Shown here: positions 7,629 to 31,999 of the stretch, piece after piece | Numbering within the stretch: the stretch's first letter is position 1 | How the letters are laid out: each line of letters opens with the position of its first letter | Source of the DNA: Acidobacteriota bacterium | GTDB taxonomy: Bacteria; Acidobacteriota; JAAYUB01 | Direction of reading: 5' to 3' | Assembly: GCA_018001935.1 (NCBI GenBank) | Contig: JAGNHB010000046.1 | Span: 1-32,000 of the forward strand | Length of the DNA stretch: 32,000 nt | Translations under genes and position numbers: made by a program | Notes under the pieces: model-generated | The model's database searches: none | What the model was told of the DNA's origin: nothing | Seen by the model: the letters and a program-made list of their open reading frames with translations, nothing else

Positions 7629-7746
7629 AAAGGACGAAAGGACTTAAAGGACCAAAAGGACCAAAAGGACAGGCGGGGCAAAAAAGGACAGGCAGAGAGA
7701 GGCGGGGCAGAGAGGGGCAGGCAGAGAGGGGCAGGCAGAGAGGGGC
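7629..7746. repeat. Tandem short repeats in a divergent intergenic region: six AAAGGAC-core units (8-9 bp period), then about 2.5 copies of a GGCAGGCAGAGAGG-type 14-mer
   Basis: The AAAGGAC core occurs at 7629, 7637, 7646, 7655, 7664 and 7683. The sequence ggcagagaggggcaggcagagaggggcaggcagagagggg spans ~7707-7746. Confidence 0.85.
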
Positions 7747-7812
7747 GGCGAGGAGCGGTTGGCCGGCCTGCCGTCGCTGAAACCGGGCGCCCTACACGCC
7801 CGTATACGATGC

Positions 7813-8616
7813 ATGGTCGATCAAGACAACGATACGGTAGTCGACAACCCGAGGGACACAAGGCCAGGGGTCCGTATTCGGGAGGACGTCACGGTAAAAG
7901 GGACCGACGGGGTCGCCGCGTCTGCGGCCCGGCGGTTCCTGGCGGTAGCGGTCGGAGTGCTGCCGGTGCACACCGGGCTGCTCTGGCACCGCCTGTCCGG
8001 GGGCGGGGCCTTCTCGGTGGCCGAGATGCTCGCCTACCCCCTCGTCCTCGGGGGGGCCAACATCCTGCTGATCCTGCTCCTGGACCGCTTCCTGCTGAAG
8101 GCTCCCCGGCGGAGCTTCAGCCCCGGCCCGGGGAGCGCGACGGGCGACCTGGGGTGGGGGATCGCTCTCCTGGCCGCCTATTTCCTGTTGATGGCCGTCG
8201 AACGCGCGGTCCTGGGGGCGTGGCTGCCGGGGGGGAAACCCCTCTCCCCGGAGTTGATGAACCTGCTTCGGGGGCTGGCCCGCGACCCCCTGCTCCTGAC
8301 CCTTTGGCTCGGGCCGGTCCTCTGGGTCGGGGTGGCTCTCTTCGAGGAGACGGCCCGGGTCTTCACCCTGAAGACTCTCTGGGGCATCCGGGACTCTGCC
8401 GCCTGGCGGGGGGGCGTGATCGTGGCTTTCGCCGTCCTGTTCGGGGTGGCGCACCTCTACCAGGGCTGGATCGGCGTGGTCACCACCGGTGTGCAGGCCG
8501 TGGTGTCCGGGCTGTTCTACCTGCGTTTCCGGCGCCTGGGGCCGCTGGTCTGGGCGCACGGCCTCTTCGACGGCATCCAGGTCGTCCAGTTGGTCGTCCT
8601 GCTCCGGCAGGCCTGA
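7813..8616 (+). CDS. CPBP-family intramembrane glutamic endopeptidase (CAAX protease-like)
   Basis: Family motifs EETARVF (EExxxR), FAVLFGVAHLYQG (FxxxH) and HGLFDG (HxxxD/N), with multiple TM helices. Start is uncertain: ATG 7813 lacks an SD, and the alternative TTG 7759 is preceded by GAGGAG. Confidence 0.8.
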   Translation: MVDQDNDTVVDNPRDTRPGVRIREDVTVKGTDGVAASAARRFLAVAVGVLPVHTGLLWHRLSGGGAFSVAEMLAYPLVLGGANILLILLLDRFLLKAPRRSFSPGPGSATGDLGWGIALLAAYFLLMAVERAVLGAWLPGGKPLSPELMNLLRGLARDPLLLTLWLGPVLWVGVALFEETARVFTLKTLWGIRDSAAWRGGVIVAFAVLFGVAHLYQGWIGVVTTGVQAVVSGLFYLRFRRLGPLVWAHGLFDGIQVVQLVVLLRQA

Positions 8617-8687
8617 GAAAACGGGTGCCAGGTTCTATCCAAGACCAATCACTTCGTGCCTTGGTGAGAGCAATTCCGGAAGGATCG

Positions 8688-9042
8688 CTCACGGAGGCAC
8701 AGAGACTCGGAGCAGATTGCGGCGTGGTGATATCGTGGCCGTGGCCGTCCGAAATCCCCGCGCCTCTGCGCGAGATAACTCTTTGAATTACAATAACTGA
8801 TCGTTTGCTGACGTGTGCGGCTCTGGCATGAGGCCGACGGCGATAGCCCTACCGACGGCGATACCGATACCGATCTGCGATACCGATTCCGACACCGACC
8901 CCGGCGGAGATTCCTCCGGACCTACAGCCCAACCCGGATAAACCGGAAAGAAACCACGGATGAACACGGATCATCCGGACGCTTCAGAATAAACAGGAAG
9001 AGGACACCCATTCTTCTGCCTCGAGTGAGTGTCCTGAATCAT
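8688..9042. repeat. Composite intergenic repeat block, left copy: hairpin-like 94-bp unit, a GATACC/GACCCC low-complexity tract, a ccggacctacagcc word and the 49-bp hairpin element
   Basis: 8688-8781 aligns with 9778-9871 (shared ctcacRgaggcacRgaga...ggccgtccg...gcctctgcgc...gaga.aa). 8836-8935 (gacggcgata..gataccgataccgat..cgattccgacaccgaccccg..ttcctccggacctacagcc) parallels 9905-10050. 8994-9042 is copy 2 of the 49-bp element. Confidence 0.75.
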
Positions 9043-9059
9043 GGTGATACGCTGACCGC

Positions 9060-9737
9060 TCAACGACGTTTGTTCAGGCCGAGCGAGATAGGTTTGCGTC
9101 GATATTCACGGACCAGGCGTCTGGCCTCGAGGTGTATGCGTCGTTCCTCATCTGCCCGGCGTCTGGCCTCGGCGCGAGCTACATTCCGTTTCCATGCGGC
9201 CAGGGACGGGGGGTTACCCCAGCCCCGTTTTGAACGGAGCAGTGACAAGGTATGAAACAGGATGGGTAAAAGAGTAGCCCCCACTACAGCCGCGACTTTG
9301 ATAGCTGACCAGCCGATATTCCGCCAGTCTGCCACGAAAACCAGGATGTAGAGAGACGTGACGGGCAGTGTTACGGCCCCCAGCCAACCGTATCGGATGC
9401 TGCGGTACCTGTGCTCCCTGGAGACAATAGAAAAGAACACATGTCTCAGGAGATAGAGGATGGTTCTTTTCCCTCTTAAAAAGAACAACAGAAGAAAAAG
9501 AAGGGAAAAAGTAATCAATCCGCTGTTGATCCGGGAATAATCTTTGTCGGTTTCCTCGGTATAATGGAAAGCGATCACTATTCCAAGCAAGACGAGAATC
9601 AGAAACCAATTAAAAAGGGGTTCCTTCCGGTCCTCCTCGTCAAGCATCAGGTGCGGCAGCTGCTCCTCGATGGGTACCTCCTCGGTTACCTCCGGCAACG
9701 GGGGTGGTTGTGGCGGCTTATCAAGATCCAGAATCAT
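9060..9737 (-). CDS. Hypothetical 4-TM membrane protein with a basic coiled C-terminal tail, encoded by a markedly AT-rich gene
   Basis: The ORF holds four clear hydrophobic helices (LFNWFLILVLLGIVIAF, LITFSLLFLLLFFL, GWLGAVTLPVTSLYILVFVA, VAAVVGATLLPILFHTLSLL) and the tail AEARRRADEERRIHLEARRLVREYRRK. Start taken as ATG 9737 (MILDLDK). GTG 9782 and an internal Met are alternatives, and the SD is weak. Confidence 0.6.
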   Translation of the reverse strand: MILDLDKPPQPPPLPEVTEEVPIEEQLPHLMLDEEDRKEPLFNWFLILVLLGIVIAFHYTEETDKDYSRINSGLITFSLLFLLLFFLRGKRTILYLLRHVFFSIVSREHRYRSIRYGWLGAVTLPVTSLYILVFVADWRNIGWSAIKVAAVVGATLLPILFHTLSLLRSKRGWGNPPSLAAWKRNVARAEARRRADEERRIHLEARRLVREYRRKPISLGLNKRR

Positions 9738-9777
9738 TGGTCTACCACAATAAAATGCTTGAAAAGAATATGTTAAT

Positions 9778-10075
9778 CTCACAGAGGCACGGAGAAGATC
9801 GCAGGGAACCGACGGCTTGGCCGGGGCCGTCCGGATTCACCGTGCCTCTGCGCCTTCGTGAGAGAAAAATCCGGGCCGGGCGGATTCCTGCCATCTTGCG
9901 ATGTCGAGATCGACGGCGATTCCGATACCGACCCCGATGGGAAAGTTTCCGGACCTTCAGCCTATCGACCTTTCGACAGCGACTGCGATACCGATACCGA
10001 TTCCGACCCCGACCCCGACCCCGATGGGAATCCCTCCGGACCTACAGCCTACAGCCTAAACCCCTACAGCCTATA
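9778..10075. repeat. Composite intergenic repeat block, right copy (direct orientation relative to 8688-9042)
   Basis: It contains an 11-bp perfect inverted repeat, cagaggcacgg (9780-9790) with ccgtgcctctg (9840-9850). It also carries the GGGCGGATTCCTGCCATCTTGCG word (9878-9900), gataccgataccgattccgaccccgaccccgacccc tracts and repeated ccggacctWcagcc / cagcctaaac words. Confidence 0.75.
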
Positions 10076-10099
10076 TTGCTTTCCCCAACCCCGTGGGAG

Positions 10100-19605: not shown

Positions 19606-21078
19606 ATGGAAAAGATCGTCAAGGAAGGCCTCACGTTCGACGACGTGCTCCTCATCCCGGGGAAGTCCTCGGTCCTGCCCTCGGAAACCGACATCTCCAC
19701 GCCGTTGACGAAGGACATCCGCCTCAACATCCCGCTCCTGTCCGCCGCCATGGACACCGTTACGGAGGCGGTGATGGCCAAGGCCCTCGCCGAGGAGGGC
19801 GGAATCGGTTTCATCCACAAGAACATGAGCATTGAGGAGCAGTGCAACGAGGTGGACATCGTCAAGCGCTCCATCAGCGGCATGATCCTCAACCCGGTCA
19901 CCATCTCCCCGGGGATGCGCATCCAGGACGCCGTGGACCTCATGGACAAGTACAAGATCTCCGGCATCCCGGTGACGGAGGGGCCGGTGCTGGTGGGGAT
20001 CCTCACCAACCGCGACCTGCGCTTCGAGACCCGCATGGACGCCCTGGTGGGCGACCTCATGACCAAGGAGCGCCTGGTGACGGCCGCCATCGGCACCTCC
20101 CTGGAGGACGCCAAGAAATTGCTTCACGCCCACCGCATCGAGAAGCTCCTCATCGTGGACGAGGGCTTCCACCTCAAGGGCCTGATCACCATCAAGGACA
20201 TCCAGAAGCTCATCGCCTACCCCAACGCCTGCAAGGACCGCCACGGGCGCCTCCTGGTGGGGGCCGCGGTCGGGGTCGGGCCCGACGGGATGGAGCGCGC
20301 CGAGGCCCTGGTGGCGGCGGGGGCCGACATCATCGCCATCGACACCGCCCACGGGCACTCCGCCGGCGTCCTGAAGGCCGTGGCGGAGTTCAAGAAGCGC
20401 TTCCCGGCCGTGCCGCTCATGGCGGGGAACGTGGGGACGGCGGAAGCGGTCACGGACCTGGCGGCGGCGGGCGCCGACGTGGTGAAGGTCGGGATCGGCC
20501 CCGGCTCCATCTGCACCACCCGCGTGGTCTCCGGCGCCGGCGTGCCCCAGATCACCGCCGTCCTGGAGTGCGCCGAGGCGGCCGCGCGCCACGGGGTCAC
20601 CGTGGTGGCCGACGGCGGGATCAAGTACTCCGGCGACATCAGCAAGGCCCTGGCGGCGGGCGCCGGCGTGGTCATGATCGGTTCCCTCTTCGCCGGCACC
20701 GACGAGAGCCCCGGCGAGGTCATCTACTACCAGAACCGGGCCTACAAGGCCTACCGCGGCATGGGGTCCCTGGGCGCCATGAAACGGGGGAGCGCCGACC
20801 GCTATTTCCAGGAGAAGAGCCAGTCCCTGGCCAAGCTGGTCCCCGAGGGCGTCGAGGGGCGCGTGCCGTACAAGGGGAGCGTCCGCAACGTCATCTTCCA
20901 GCTCATGGGCGGCCTCAAGGCGGGGATGGGCTACTGCGGCTGCGCCGACCTGGCGGACTTCCGCGCGCGCTCCCGCTTCATCCGCATCACCAACAGCGGC
21001 CTGCGCGAGTCCCACGTCCACGACGTCATCGTCACCCAGGAGGCCCCCAACTACAAGGTGGAATCCCCCACCGCGTGA
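19606..21078 (+). CDS. guaB: IMP dehydrogenase
   Basis: N-terminus [13 protein letters not shown], a tandem CBS insert, [31 protein letters not shown] (catalytic Cys loop), [27 protein letters not shown] and YRGMGS. ATG 19606 follows AGGGAG. Confidence 0.95.
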
Positions 21079-21093
21079 CCACCGAGGGGATTT

Positions 21094-21275
21094 GAACCAC
21101 GAAATACACGGAATACACGAAAGGAGATGAAGCCTGGAAATCCACGAACAGGTTTTCAAAGGCGAGGGATGATGTTCAAGAAGGCCACCATTCATCGGGG
21201 CGGACCCCTGAACCCCTTCAGCCTAAACCGTTAAAAGCCTGTTCTTGAACCACGAACCACACCAACCACACGAAC
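21094..21275. repeat. Left arm (IR-L) of a ~180-bp imperfect inverted repeat built from CACGAA-type words
   Basis: The reverse complement of 23187-23367 aligns end to end with 21094-21275 at roughly 80% identity by eye. The terminal blocks are near-identical: gaaccacgaaatacacggaatacacgaaaggaga and ccccttcagcctaaaccg.taa.agcct.ttcttgaaccacgaaccacaccaaccacacgaac. Confidence 0.85.
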
Positions 21276-21367
21276 AGGGGCCCTGGGGTTGCAGCCCCGT
21301 AACTGGTGACGCAGGCTCCGGCCTGCGCGGGAAAACAAAGCAAACCCGGAAGCAGAGGTCGGCTGAT

Positions 21368-22231
21368 ATGGAACTAACTTCCCGTGTGAAAATCGGGCTG
21401 CTCCTTCTGGTATGTCTGGCCATCCCGGGGCTTTTCTGGGGTTGCGGGGAGCAACCCGCCCCGCTTCCGGCTTTCACCTGGTGGGATTACAGGCCGTTCC
21501 CTTTGTTGCGGCTGCCGAAAACGCAGTTGGGTACACTGCTGCCGGTCAGACCTCATGGCAACATCTTTCTGACGCTGGACGCCCACGCTGTCCCTTTTCT
21601 CGGCAACAAGCGCATGGTTGATCTGGGGGATCTGTCCGCGCGAATACGTCGATGGAAGGAAATGGAGAGCATTGGACAACCGACCGGTCCCGGACCCCTG
21701 ACTCCGTTATTGTCGCCCTGGAAGCCGGACGGGCGGGACGCCCAGGCCCTGATCGCCCTCGACCCGGCCCTGAAATTCGCCCAGGTGCGCCTCCTGCTCT
21801 CGGCGTGCAGGGCCGCCGGGCTGCCCGACGCCGCCCTGGTCGCCCGTCGGGTTTCTCCCCCCGTAACCATTCCCGATCCGGATGACGAGCTGCTTTTCTG
21901 TCTCAGGTTCCGATGGGAGGAAATCTCCGCGAAGTTTGAGGCTCTCGATTTGCGGCAAGTCCCCCTCTGCAGCTATGCGATCAATTTCCGGACCTCGGCG
22001 TCGCCGGATTCAAGCCCCTGGATCGAACTGACCGCGCAGGGATTGTCTCCCGCGCTTCGGGTTACCGACGGACCCAGGCAAGCGGGGGGTTTAACAAAAG
22101 GACCGGAAGAAACCGGGACGGGTGTAATCTGCATCCATCCCCGGGATGACGCCACCGTGGCCGCTTTTTTCCGGGCGCTCGAGGAATCCGCGAGACAGGG
22201 ATACCAAGCCGTCCTGATTGAAGTAGAATAA
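21368..22231 (+). CDS. Hypothetical lipoprotein (signal peptide with a Cys lipobox-like site)
   Basis: MELTSRVKIGLLLLVCLAIPGLFWGC has a hydrophobic h-region followed by Cys. Two segments (ALIALDPALKFAQVRLLLSACRAAGL and VICIHPRDDATVAAFFRALEESARQGYQAVLIE) weakly resemble ExbD/TolR-type cores by eye. The ORF upstream of 21368 runs into IR-L and is not credible coding sequence. Confidence 0.55.
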   Translation: MELTSRVKIGLLLLVCLAIPGLFWGCGEQPAPLPAFTWWDYRPFPLLRLPKTQLGTLLPVRPHGNIFLTLDAHAVPFLGNKRMVDLGDLSARIRRWKEMESIGQPTGPGPLTPLLSPWKPDGRDAQALIALDPALKFAQVRLLLSACRAAGLPDAALVARRVSPPVTIPDPDDELLFCLRFRWEEISAKFEALDLRQVPLCSYAINFRTSASPDSSPWIELTAQGLSPALRVTDGPRQAGGLTKGPEETGTGVICIHPRDDATVAAFFRALEESARQGYQAVLIEVE

Positions 22232-22343
22232 ACACTTGAGCCGCTGGTTGCAGGCCAGGTTGTGTTGCGTATCAGATTTTAGGAACGGACGGGAAAGGCA
22301 ATTGAAAAAAAAGCCGTAAACCTCATGGAGGCAAGGAGGGAAG

Positions 22344-22811
22344 ATGCGTCGAATCAGGGTGTATGTCGACACTTCCGTATTCGGGGGAATTGAAGACGAG
22401 GAGTTCTCGGATGCGAGTCGGCGGTTTTTCCAACGGGTAGCAGAAGGTGATTATATTGTCTTGATTTCCGAGGAGACCTATCGAGAGCTATCGAAATCAC
22501 CGGAATCAGTTCGTGACATTTTAACGGCTCTACCGTCCGGGTCTCTGGAAGACGTTCTTATCGAATCCGAGACACTTGAATTGGCCGCTGAGTACATCCG
22601 ATCCGGAATACTTGGCGAGGCTTCACGAGGGGATGCGTTGCACGTGGCCGCCGCAACCGTGGCTGGTGCGGACCTCATTCTGAGCTGGAATTTCAAACAC
22701 ATCGTGAATTATAATCGAATCAGGAGATTCAATGGGGTGAATGTCCTGCTGGGCTATCGTTCGATGACGATTCTGAGCCCACGAGAGGTGGGAGATGAAT
22801 CCGAAGAATAA
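22344..22811 (+). CDS. PIN-domain ribonuclease-type toxin (VapC-like)
   Basis: Acidic PIN residues occur in the expected order: VYVDTSVFGG (Asp1), ISEETYRE (Glu), GDALHVAAA (Asp) and LILSWNFKHI. A strong AGGAGGGAAG SD precedes the ATG. Local GC is clearly below the flanks. Confidence 0.75.
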   Translation: MRRIRVYVDTSVFGGIEDEEFSDASRRFFQRVAEGDYIVLISEETYRELSKSPESVRDILTALPSGSLEDVLIESETLELAAEYIRSGILGEASRGDALHVAAATVAGADLILSWNFKHIVNYNRIRRFNGVNVLLGYRSMTILSPREVGDESEE

Positions 22812-23019
22812 AAAGTTCGATTGCGTAGAGATGAAAAACCGGGTTCAGGCAGAACTGATGCGGGAATACGAAGCCCGAAAGTCGGAATTTCCGTCCTACG
22901 AGAGTTTCATCGTCGCCACTGCGGACCAGGACCCCTGGATCGTCTCTGTGCGGGAAAAGATCCGGAAAACCTCCCAAAAAACCAAGTCTACAATACACTC
23001 CCGGAAGAGTGCCGTCTGA
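22795..23019 (+). CDS. Small (74-aa) hypothetical protein overlapping the PIN gene 3' end by 17 nt; candidate cognate antitoxin in reverse gene order
   Basis: The ATG lies within ...gagaggtgggagATGaat, so an SD sits inside the PIN coding sequence. The ORF shares the low GC of the PIN gene. It has a charged helical N-half (VEMKNRVQAELMREYEARKSEF) and no recognised motif. Confidence 0.45.
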   Translation: MNPKNKKFDCVEMKNRVQAELMREYEARKSEFPSYESFIVATADQDPWIVSVREKIRKTSQKTKSTIHSRKSAV

Positions 23020-23186
23020 ACATCGGGGTCCGGCAGATGGTTGAGACCCTTGACCGGGCCCGGCGTGCTGGGGTCGAGGATACCTTCCTGATTCCGGCTC
23101 CTGGAGCTCGACGAGGTCCGCTACGCCATGGAAGGCGATGCGGTTGCCCGCTTCTCACGTTGAATCCCTGCTCAGTTCCAGCTATA

Positions 23187-23367
23187 GTTCGTGTGGTTGG
23201 TGTGGTTCGTGGTTCAAGAATAGGCTGTTAGCGGTTTAGGCTGAAGGGGTTTAGGATTTGACCCGATGAATCGTGGCTTTCCTCAACGTCGTCCCTCGAC
23301 TTTGAAGACCTTTTCGTAGGGCTCCTGGTTTCTTCTCCTTTCGTGTATTCCGTGTATTTCGTGGTTC
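23187..23367. repeat. Right arm (IR-R) of the ~180-bp inverted repeat
   Basis: See IR-L. An additional partial cgtgtatctcgtggtt word follows at 23376-23391. Confidence 0.85.
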
Positions 23368-23417
23368 CTTTCTTTCGTGTATCTCGTGGTTGATAACGCA
23401 TCGTTTTGGAGGTTGAG

Positions 23418-24152
23418 ATGACCCGGTTGAGTGTGAACGTGAACAAGATCGCCCTCCTGCGCAACGCGCGGGGGCCGCTGGCGGAGCCGAACCTGATGGC
23501 CCTCGTCCACAAGATCGTGGGCTGGGGCGCCGACGGCATCACCGTCCACCCGCGGGCGGACCGGCGCCACATCACTCCCGACGACGCCCGGGACGTGGCG
23601 CGGGAGGTGACGAGCGTGGAGACCAATTTCGAGGGGGACGTCCGCGAGGAGTTCCTGGAACTGGTCCTCGCGTGCCGACCCACCCAGTGCACCCTGGTGC
23701 CCGTCAAGCCCGGGGAGCTGACCTCCAACCACGGCTGGGAGTGCGGGCAGTGGGGCTACCTGCTCACGCCGGTGGTGGCCGAGCTGCACCGGGCCGGTGT
23801 CCGCACCAGCATCTTCGTGGAGCCCGACGCTGTCGCGGTGGAGCGGGCCGCCGGCACCGGCACCGACCGGGTGGAGCTCTACACCGAGCCCTACGCCCGG
23901 GCCTTCCGGGAAGGGAACCCGGGGCCCGAGGTCCGCCGGATCGTGGCCGCCGCCGAGGCCGCCCGTCGGCGTGGCATCGCCCTCAACGCCGGCCACGACC
24001 TCACCACCGCCAACCTGGGGATGCTGCTGGACGCGGTGCCGGACATCGCGGAGGTCTCGATCGGCCACCACCTCGTGGCCCAGGCCCTGGAGGACGGCCT
24101 CGAGCGCACGGTGAAGCAGTTCCTCGCCATCTGCCACCGGCCGAGGCCATGA
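23418..24152 (+). CDS. pdxJ: Pyridoxine 5'-phosphate synthase
   Basis: Motifs LSVNVNKIALLRNARG, GADGITVHPRADRRHIT, CTLVP, VELYTEPYA, LNAGHDL and VSIGHHLVAQAL, collinear with E. coli PdxJ. The ATG follows GGAGGTTGAG. Confidence 0.92.
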   Translation: MTRLSVNVNKIALLRNARGPLAEPNLMALVHKIVGWGADGITVHPRADRRHITPDDARDVAREVTSVETNFEGDVREEFLELVLACRPTQCTLVPVKPGELTSNHGWECGQWGYLLTPVVAELHRAGVRTSIFVEPDAVAVERAAGTGTDRVELYTEPYARAFREGNPGPEVRRIVAAAEAARRRGIALNAGHDLTTANLGMLLDAVPDIAEVSIGHHLVAQALEDGLERTVKQFLAICHRPRP

Positions 24153-24208
24153 CGGGGCGTGGAAGGAAAGGCAAAGCCCCGAGACAAGGCGCCCTGACCC
24201 GAAGGGCT

Positions 24209-24362
24209 CAAAGGACCCAAAGGACCCAAAGGACATAAAGGACATAAAGGACATAAAGGACATGAGAGGCCCGAAAGGCTGAGGGGGCCCGGCACGGGCT
24301 TTCACTTCGTCCTTCTGGTCCTTTTGGTCCTTTGGGTCCTTTTGGTCCTTTTGTCTCTTTCG
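24209..24362. repeat. Palindromic array of 9-bp tandem repeats between convergent genes: six [C/T]AAAGGAC[C/A] units, a ~46-bp spacer, then five to six inverted GTCCTTTTG units. Possible bidirectional terminator or structured element
   Basis: Left-arm units start at 24209, 24218, 24227, 24236, 24245 and 24254. Right-arm units start at 24309, 24318, 24327, 24336 and 24345, with a degenerate one at 24354. The AAAGGAC and GTCCTTT cores are complementary. The array lies between the pdxJ stop (24152) and the NRPS stop (24374). Confidence 0.85.
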
Positions 24363-24373
24363 CCCCCCGTCGC

Positions 24374-31999
<7,626 letters not shown>

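Follow-up and report, generated by a model that had tools for sequence, protein, structure and literature searches.

A cassette of accessory genes between guaB and pdxJ of an Acidobacteriota bacterium, bounded by conserved inverted arrays of a 9-nucleotide word

The window analyzed here is a stretch of 32,000 nucleotides (nt) from contig JAGNHB010000046.1 of an uncultured, high-GC Acidobacteriota bacterium, and between its housekeeping genes guaB and pdxJ lies a 2.3-kb segment (21094-23367) that is bounded by inverted repeats and carries three genes. We find that this segment is a cassette that predates the split of the three lineages sampled and has been inherited at one site, that its conserved boundaries are short arrays of a 9-nt word, and that such arrays form a class that spans many phyla and is linked to small genes wedged in between others. 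The cargo of the cassette consists of two compositionally distinct modules, one formed by an orphan gene (ORF1) and the other by a PIN-domain gene and a small overlapping gene (ORF3). With confidence about evenly balanced, we favor the reading that the segment is an old, inherited accessory-gene cassette and a cargo-carrying member of this array-bounded class.

Structure of the cassette

The left flank of the cassette is guaB (IMP dehydrogenase; 19606..21078, + strand; Pfam IMPDH, E 2e-161, plus CBS domains) and the right flank is pdxJ (23418..24152, + strand; Pfam PdxJ, E 2e-75); miaA, upstream in the window, was confirmed by Pfam in the same way. The cassette occupies the whole gap between the two flanking genes, its left arm starting 16 nt past the guaB stop codon (21076-21078) and its right arm ending 50 nt 5' of the pdxJ ATG at 23418, and its three cargo open reading frames (ORFs) and both flanking genes all lie on the + strand. 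The arms (21094-21275 on the + strand, 23187-23367 on the - strand), previously read by eye at about 80% identity, are real: they agree at 157 positions, differ at 24 and have one gap in a global alignment of approximately 182 nt (86%), and a repeat search divides them into two inverted blocks, 21094-21199 against 23262-23367 (106 nt, 85%) and 21207-21275 against 23187-23255 (69 nt, 94%). The extremities of the arms, approximately 34 nt each, match perfectly between the two arms and are their best-conserved parts. Three further features in the original prediction are borne out by our analysis, namely passenger genes inside inverted repeats without a transposase, the lower guanine-plus-cytosine (GC) content of the enclosed DNA (0.48-0.55 at about 22200-23100, the PIN-ORF3 module, and 0.59-0.66 over ORF1, as against 0.68-0.76 in the flanks), and the lack of a visible target-site duplication at the cassette flanks (...GGGGATTT on the left and CTTTCTTT... 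on the right). The arrangement is not an assembly artifact, because the arms are imperfect copies of each other, a 1,971-nt Logan contig from an independent assembly matches the cassette interior, and two relatives share the architecture; the Logan contig breaks inside the inner arrays of both arms, as repeats cause assembly graphs to do.

Each arm consists of a core of approximately 125 nt between two arrays, 28-29 nt long, of the nonamer CACGAAnnA, with the units in direct orientation within the arm, and the plan A1-core-A2 on the left is mirrored by A3-core-A4 on the right, giving an outer pair (A1/A4) and, nested within it, an inner pair (A2/A3). Array A1 (21094..21121, + strand; GAAC-CACGAAATA-CACGGAATA-CACGAA; period 9 by Tandem Repeats Finder) is the reverse complement of A4 (23340..23367, - strand), and A2 (21247..21275, + strand; GAAC-CACGAACCA-CACCAACCA-CACGAAC) is that of A3 (23187..23215, - strand). 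An extra partial array beyond the right arm, A5 (23365..23392, - strand), is a 25-nt slippage-type duplication of A4.

The left core (21122..21246, + strand), the 3' third of which is a word array of the CAGCCTAAACC type, and its inverted copy, the right core (23216..23339, - strand), which holds a period-15 array at 23221-23255, are 80% identical, whereas each array block matches its counterpart in the other arm perfectly. Exactly two occurrences of an 18-mer from the core were counted in the window (0.02 are expected in shuffled sequence), and searches of the window, the relatives and public metagenome contigs found no further copy of the core. Because this filler is window-specific and present in both arms, the 180-bp arms as such would not be the functional unit. 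We discarded three other interpretations of the arms: the core as a repeated element (the 18-mer matched 10 metagenome sites, none of them arm-homologous and several in unrelated word arrays), the core as a decayed GxxExxY gene (no match in a profile search) and the arm as a structured RNA (folding z-scores of 0.63 and 0.38, not significant). Rfam returned nothing at the gathering threshold over the whole window, nor at E<=1 over 20950-23500. ORF callers can extend genes through the arrays, and a TTG start at 21245 ('MNHEPHQPHEQ...'; region 21245-21367) is a translation artifact of this kind.

Age and turnover of the cassette

A search with pdxJ recovered two close relatives (92-93% amino acid identity) and then none above 70%; the nearest named homologs, from Myxococcota and Holophaga, are approximately 62% identical. 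The first relative, R1, is contig L122, the guaB of which is 93.8% identical in nucleotide sequence to that of the window, and the second, R2, is contig L126 joined to L123 through A4. In R1, guaB is followed by A1, 5 nt, a shortened A2, approximately 220 nt, ORF1, a 3' remnant of the PIN gene, ORF3, A3, 9 nt, A4 and pdxJ; in R2 the order is A1, 4 nt, A2, an internally deleted PIN gene, ORF3, ORF1, a shortened A3, 5 nt, A4 and pdxJ. All three lineages thus hold cargo and nested inverted arrays at one guaB-pdxJ site, and R1 and R2 both lack the approximately 125-nt core, with A1 and A2 adjacent. Array A1 is conserved in both relatives; R2 has an identical A2 and R1 an identical A3, whereas A2 of R1 and A3 of R2 are each shorter by one unit; and A4 matches that of R2 at 26 of 27 aligned positions. 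In contrast to A4 plus A5 of the window, one array alone abuts the pdxJ leader in R1 and R2.

The cassette is therefore old, because the relatives have this cassette too, at the identical site and with its arrays, and the three lineages differ in their flanking genes by a synonymous divergence (dS) of 0.20-0.28. The suggestion in the original prediction of a pair of miniature inverted-repeat transposable elements (MITEs) or a foldback element is not supported by this comparison in the sense of a recent insertion, and its counter-scenario of an ancestral arrangement without repeats holds in part: the relatives do have the cassette at the same site, but they keep the terminal arrays. Across lineages the arrays are 94% identical, as against 73-87% for the aligned parts of adjacent non-coding spacers, and the differences are mostly changes of unit number or register; among the non-coding DNA of the locus, it is thus the arrays that are conserved.

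The content of the cassette has behaved differently from its boundaries. ORF1 and ORF3 are under purifying selection (ratios of nonsynonymous to synonymous divergence [dN/dS] of 0.33-0.43 and 0.12-0.28, respectively), indicating that they are real genes, and the PIN gene has been inactivated independently by a 5' deletion in R1 (L122, 2805-2981) and an internal deletion of approximately 226 nt in R2 (L126, 87-227). The cargo of R2 is separated from that of the window and R1 by a dS of 0.64-0.99, far above the flanks, and its ORF3 is only 55% identical to that of the window, which is as distant as a homolog from an unrelated organism (56%). The cargo allele of R2 is thus much older than its flanks, and the content of the cassette has turned over, by replacement or recombination, while the boundaries stayed. 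The window and R1 have the same interior orientation; in R2 the ORF1 and PIN-ORF3 blocks are swapped, a rearrangement that is required under either orientation of the interior. An integron-cassette reading of this swap was rejected, because the 5 nt between ORF3 and ORF1 in R2 leave no room for an attC-like site; no integrase was seen.

The array class in other genomes

The arrays of the window are members of a widespread class. A pattern with 22 specified bases, which covers both array types, matched at least 120 loci in species-representative genomes of many phyla; among the matches listed are Planctomycetota, Verrucomicrobiota, Acidobacteriota, Bacteroidota (Saprospiraceae, Flavobacteriales and Carboxylicivirga), Caulobacterales and other Proteobacteria, Thermodesulfobacteriota, Desulfobacteraceae, Anaerolineae, Latescibacterota and others. 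Fifteen stretches of viral contigs matched the pattern, versus 1 and 0 for two permuted-hexamer controls (a scan of the viral contigs for AAAGGACnn was confounded by collagen-like coding repeats and was not used). The arrays mostly occur as convergent pairs, with 72 pairs less than 600 nt apart among the matches listed. Partner arrays not selected by the pattern likewise terminate in AAC|CACGAA, and conservation ends approximately 6 nt beyond the array (consensus TTGAAC). Where two copies were found within one genome, homology is delimited by the arrays, which are better conserved than the interior, as in the arms of the window. In several pairs, such as L022 and L053, the two partners do not complement each other at the variable nn positions; conservation there extends to the CACGAA word and is not confined to pairing. 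The proposal that the arm is a genome-wide intergenic repeat is accordingly right for its 28-29-nt CACGAA ends, which are of this widespread class, and not supported for the 180-bp arm as a unit, the core of which is confined to the window. In the searchable literature we came upon no account of the array class (one may exist outside it), and a search for the array sequence as a string returned only primers or nothing.

Association with GxxExxY genes

The class is linked to small, selfish-looking genes, most often of one family. At eight loci selected for their arrays, the arrays lie no more than 300 nt, and mostly 2-60 nt, from a GxxExxY-like gene (approximately 125 amino acids), often on both sides; three of the array-flanked genes match TIGR04256 (E 1e-40 to 1e-44), one of which also matches PF13366/PDDEXK_3. 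One array-bounded unit carries a DUF2283 gene. We also assembled a sample of GxxExxY genes independently of arrays, comprising the seven closest homologs on viral contigs and those on replicons of Bacteroides finegoldii, Bernardetia, Gemmatirosa and Sphingomonas. The array flavors beside these genes are CGCAGAAnn, CGCGAAAnn, ACGGAATAA, CACAGAGGA, CGCAGAGGA, CGCGAAGnn and CACGAAnnA; inverted arrays mostly stand on both sides of the gene (in Gemmatirosa, a hairpin pair lies downstream), and the flavor is equal on both sides of each gene (L153-L159, L189-L192). A strict automatic detector called arrays at 9 of 20 GxxExxY flanks, versus 2 of 118 background windows and none of 24 flanks of distant viral homologs.

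In three annotated isolate records the GxxExxY gene lies co-directionally in a tight gap between housekeeping genes: between radA and the gene for a flavin adenine dinucleotide (FAD)-dependent protein, between ade and the gene for mannose-1-phosphate guanylyltransferase, and between fabD and fabG. The radA junction is filled in B. finegoldii (TTCACCACAGAGG..., the GxxExxY gene, ...CCTCTGTGGTGAA), and in P. distasonis there are only 13 nt to the next gene; the fabD-fabG junction is filled in S. parapaucimobilis and is a short spacer in S. paeninsulae. In members of two phyla (Bacteroidales and Sphingomonas), array, gene and array are thus present or absent as one unit, because a congener or a related genus has the empty junction. 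(The corresponding radA site in Phocaeicola holds an ordinary 215-amino acid gene with no arrays and is irrelevant to this comparison.) The guaB-pdxJ cassette shares with these units its inverted arrays of one flavor and its co-directional filling of a gap, and does not share their GxxExxY cargo. Mentions of GxxExxY/PDDEXK_3 in the searchable literature are incidental only, with the function listed as 'Unknown' and multiple transfers noted.

Arrays of this kind can themselves be repeated. On L094 (1-2400), two near-identical, frameshifted GxxExxY copies are each flanked by arrays repeated at a 42-nt period, and these arrays of arrays are read through as spurious 'NHELHELHE' ORFs.

Cargo genes

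The first module, ORF1 (21368..22231, + strand), encodes an orphan protein of 287 amino acids. Its family has only three members among 5.8 billion proteins and is cargo at this one locus only; a profile search of 1.84 billion representatives added just a spurious ankyrin match, no match was found in Pfam, NCBIfam or PADLOC, and the AlphaFold model is unusable (predicted local distance difference test score [pLDDT] of 32). A hydrophobic N-terminal segment followed by a conserved cysteine suggests that ORF1 is a candidate secreted protein or lipoprotein. The lipoprotein label given to it earlier agrees with this segment and cysteine, but the lipobox is non-canonical and the label has no other support; a resemblance to ExbD/TolR, noted by eye, was dropped because no tool supported it.

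The second module comprises the PIN-domain gene (22344..22811, + strand; 155 amino acids), a toxin candidate that is intact only in the window, and ORF3 (22795..23019, + strand; 74 amino acids), an antitoxin candidate that overlaps the 3' end of the PIN gene by 17 nt and is intact in all three lineages. The PF01850 score of the PIN protein, 23.6 bits, equals the Pfam cut-off, and PIN_3 falls under its own cut-off; the family assignment is supported by 1,586 homologous matches, some of which are named PIN domain-containing protein. The nearest homologs (64-69% identical, with 68% for the best match) sit in unrelated lineages, such as Desulfobacterales and Phycisphaerae, and horizontal acquisition therefore fits. 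Small genes (67-76 amino acids) that overlap PIN homologs in L193, L195 and L196 are 51-56% identical to ORF3, so PIN-ORF3 is a conserved module of two genes, the smaller of which lies downstream. The earlier call of a PIN toxin pair is thus upheld as to the family and the conserved overlapping partner, with the proviso that the PF01850 score only reaches the cut-off. As in type II (VapC/PIN) toxin-antitoxin systems, the PIN gene is overlap-coupled to a small partner, the pair is kept in unrelated genomes, and the toxin candidate decays while the partner stays; unlike in those systems, the order is reversed, with the small gene downstream, and the partner matches no named antitoxin family. A toxin and its antidote would be expected to decay in this way, with PIN lost on two occasions and ORF3 kept, and the two genes may be regarded as a putative toxin-antitoxin pair.

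A model for the array-bounded cassettes

In the model that we favor, the nested A1/A4 and A2/A3 arrays would be the functional ends of the cassette, and they would act as paired ends for its insertion or exchange by a factor supplied in trans, for which a GxxExxY-type nuclease encoded elsewhere in the genome would be a candidate. Within the cassette, PIN-ORF3 would serve as a stabilizing module of the toxin-antitoxin type and ORF1 would be an envelope or secreted protein. We prefer paired ends to other functions of the arrays, at somewhat less than even confidence, because pairing alone would not require such conservation of the word and its 9-nt period and because array, gene and array come and go as a unit at conserved junctions. 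A bolder form of the model, which we put forward tentatively and consider possible rather than probable, is that the inverted 9-nt arrays, in CACGAAnnA and related flavors, are the ends of a class of small mobile cassettes that is spread over many bacterial phyla and of which we found no description. Its autonomous form would encode only the approximately 125-amino acid GxxExxY PD-(D/E)XK nuclease and would insert without target-site duplication in tight gaps between housekeeping genes; the guaB-pdxJ cassette would be a non-autonomous derivative, with a toxin-antitoxin pair and an orphan envelope protein replacing the nuclease.

Several observations weigh against these proposals. Neither tblastn nor a profile search found a GxxExxY gene in the window, L122, L123 or L126, and no transposase was noticed in the 32-kb window or on the contigs of the relatives. 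The many array flavors beside one protein family argue against a single sequence-specific enzyme, the association with GxxExxY genes covers tens of loci rather than a census, and no target-site duplication was found at the 72 convergent array pairs or at the guaB-pdxJ cassette. Gene conversion between the arms could explain the conservation of the arrays without any function. The cargo was found at a single locus only, which leaves mobility of the guaB-pdxJ cassette itself conjectural, and an empty guaB-pdxJ site was not recovered among three more distant pdxJ relatives (65-70%), in which guaB is not upstream, because synteny is lost at that level of pdxJ identity. The PIN-ORF3 modules of other genomes are not array-bounded, for which reason we also rejected the idea that the arrays are a property of these modules. 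Finally, the orientation of the R2 interior relative to the flanks is ambiguous, because the contig ends fall in A1 and A4, each the reverse complement of the other, and the repeat exceeds the assembler k-mer.

Comparison with known systems

We class the locus as a novel form of inverted-repeat-bounded cassette, akin to several known kinds and a member of none, because the defining features of the candidate families were tested and each family has some that the locus lacks. MITE-bounded cargo units include the mobile insertion cassettes (MICs; for example, MIC231 of Bacillus cereus), integron mobilization units and the Tn3-derived inverted-repeat miniature elements (TIMEs). The cassette resembles these in having terminal inverted repeats around passenger genes, no transposase and a mobilization that, if any, would occur in trans; it differs in that it has no target-site duplication and no known cognate transposase, its ends are tandem 9-nt arrays, and it is single-copy and fixed at one site in three lineages, with neither multiple copies nor presence/absence polymorphism found.

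Repetitive extragenic palindromes (REPs), bacterial interspersed mosaic elements (BIMEs) and the REP-derived REPINs are short, imperfectly palindromic intergenic repeats, which flank the gene for the REP-associated tyrosine transposase (RAYT), a Y1 (HUH) transposase. Like them, the arrays are short intergenic repeats that occur mostly in inverted pairs, have ends better conserved than the spacer, show no target-site duplication, and exist in many copies per genome with a genome-specific flavor. Unlike them, a single array is a 9-nt tandem repeat and not a palindrome, the CACGAA word recurs across phyla, and the array-associated gene encodes a PD-(D/E)XK GxxExxY protein and not a Y1 (HUH) RAYT.

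The intervening sequences (IVSs) of 23S rRNA genes that carry an S23p ORF (for example, in Coxiella and Leptospira) have terminal inverted repeats of approximately 28 bp that form a stem, which RNase III cuts to excise them (PMC4990558). The likeness here is a small selfish ORF bounded by stem-forming inverted repeats inside a host transcription unit, acquired horizontally and then inherited vertically, and the arms of the cassette form in silico a stem well above 20 bp (approximately 187 bp predicted). The cassette, however, lies between protein-coding genes and not in a 23S rRNA helix, and its cargo is three unrelated genes.

Alternative explanations

A serious rival, though on the whole an unlikely one, places the function of the arrays at the level of RNA: transcription would read through from guaB, the inverted arrays or the whole 182-nt arms would pair into a stem that encloses the cassette, and processing of the RNase III type would separate the cassette message from those of its neighbors. 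This explanation draws on the common + strand orientation of the cargo and both flanks, and on the co-directional setting of the isolate GxxExxY cassettes in their tight gaps. The predicted pairing of the arms has a free energy of about -313 kcal/mol, and the upstream and downstream arrays of a cassette are always of one flavor, so that complementarity is kept while the sequence varies; the IVS stem of 28 bp, cut by RNase III, offers a precedent (PMC4990558). The differences between the arms also lean toward those compatible with G.U pairing in + strand RNA (11 versus 4), a bias that is not significant (p = 0.12). What speaks against a pairing function is that the nn positions of several array pairs (L022 and L053 among them) are non-complementary, that the CACGAA word and the 9-nt period are conserved more strictly than pairing needs, and that Rfam has no match. 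Such an insulating stem would be compatible with arrays that are also ends at the level of DNA.

The remaining explanations are less likely. We think it quite improbable that the association of arrays and cargo is a coincidence, in which REP-like intergenic repeats (for example, terminators or structural elements) happened to lie 3' of guaB and 5' of pdxJ, the cargo came in independently of them, for instance by homologous recombination in the flanks, and gene conversion kept the arms similar. Array hairpins without cargo elsewhere in the window (7629-7746 and 24196-24353), PIN-ORF3 modules without arrays in other genomes and the missing target-site duplication all agree with this account, and the deeply diverged cargo of R2 would fit import by flank recombination. 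It has difficulty, however, with the nested, flavor-matched symmetry of A1 and A2 against A3 and A4 that three lineages have kept, with low-GC DNA delimited exactly by the repeats, with a second low-GC island in the same 32 kb that is also bracketed by array modules, and with junctions in other phyla at which array, gene and array are present in one species and absent in another. Very little weight can be given to an active or recent non-autonomous cargo transposon of the MITE-pair or foldback type, whose 180-bp arms would be recognized by a conventional transposase in trans. Inverted repeats around passenger genes of lower GC content, with no transposase, are what it predicts, but the site shared by three lineages at dS 0.2-0.28 largely refutes it; in addition, there is no target-site duplication, the cargo family is found only at the guaB-pdxJ locus, and the arm core is missing from the relatives and has no other copy anywhere searched. 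Similarly remote is a switch in which recombination between the long inverted arms would flip the cassette. Repeats of 182 nt at 86% identity with perfect 34-nt blocks could support homologous inversion, and the R2 orientation is ambiguous in the assemblies; the window and R1, however, have the same orientation, no invertase or recombinase gene is adjacent, and no promoter logic is evident.

Other array modules and neighboring genes in the window

The window contains further arrays outside the cassette. Between the convergent pdxJ and non-ribosomal peptide synthetase (NRPS) genes, at 24196-24353, seven units of AAAGGACnn and five of the inverse (GTCCTTTTG) lie 45 nt apart without cargo, and L122 has matching arrays downstream of its pdxJ. 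Intergenic tandem arrays at 7629-7746, upstream of the ORF at 7809-8786, consist of five units of AAAGGACnn followed by four of CAGGCAGAGAGGGG. The second low-GC island (approximately 8790-10090, GC content 0.47-0.58) holds one membrane-protein gene (9060-9782, - strand, 240 amino acids), which has only sub-threshold matches to DUF6057 and DUF4271; on either side of the island stand directly oriented copies of a module composed of short-word arrays (8700-8935 and 9782-10062, 74-83% identity). The word CCTACAGCCTAAACC of this module recurs in the 3' part of the arm cores and in unrelated metagenome word arrays. Word arrays of the CAGCCTAAACC/CCTACAG type (periods 7 and 15) are shared by the arm cores with the boundary of the second island and with unrelated metagenome contigs; they stand at 10041-10073, 21213-21240 and 23221-23255 in the window, and also on L128, L129, L133 and L136.

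The NRPS gene (24374-31999, - strand; more than 2,541 amino acids) converges on pdxJ and runs off the window. Its counterpart in L123 encodes 2,619 amino acids, and L122 has an amidase gene in its place, indicating that the right-hand neighborhood varies too.

Implications

In practical terms, the arrays break short-read assemblies, yield spurious ORFs ('NHEPHQPHE...') and mimic transposon ends. Should the arrays prove to be no more than structural repeats, the locus would remain a clear example of an old genomic islet with conserved boundaries and a content that turns over. If instead they are functional ends, then the locus would represent, in a form with a large cargo, a minimal cassette system that occurs in many phyla. 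Such a system would account for the position of GxxExxY genes, whose large and widely transferred family has no known function, as wedges within operons, and for the periodic 9-nt inverted arrays in the intergenic DNA of many genomes; it would also give small accessory genes, such as those for toxin-antitoxin pairs and envelope proteins, a further way into the gaps between core genes with no transposase or integrase.

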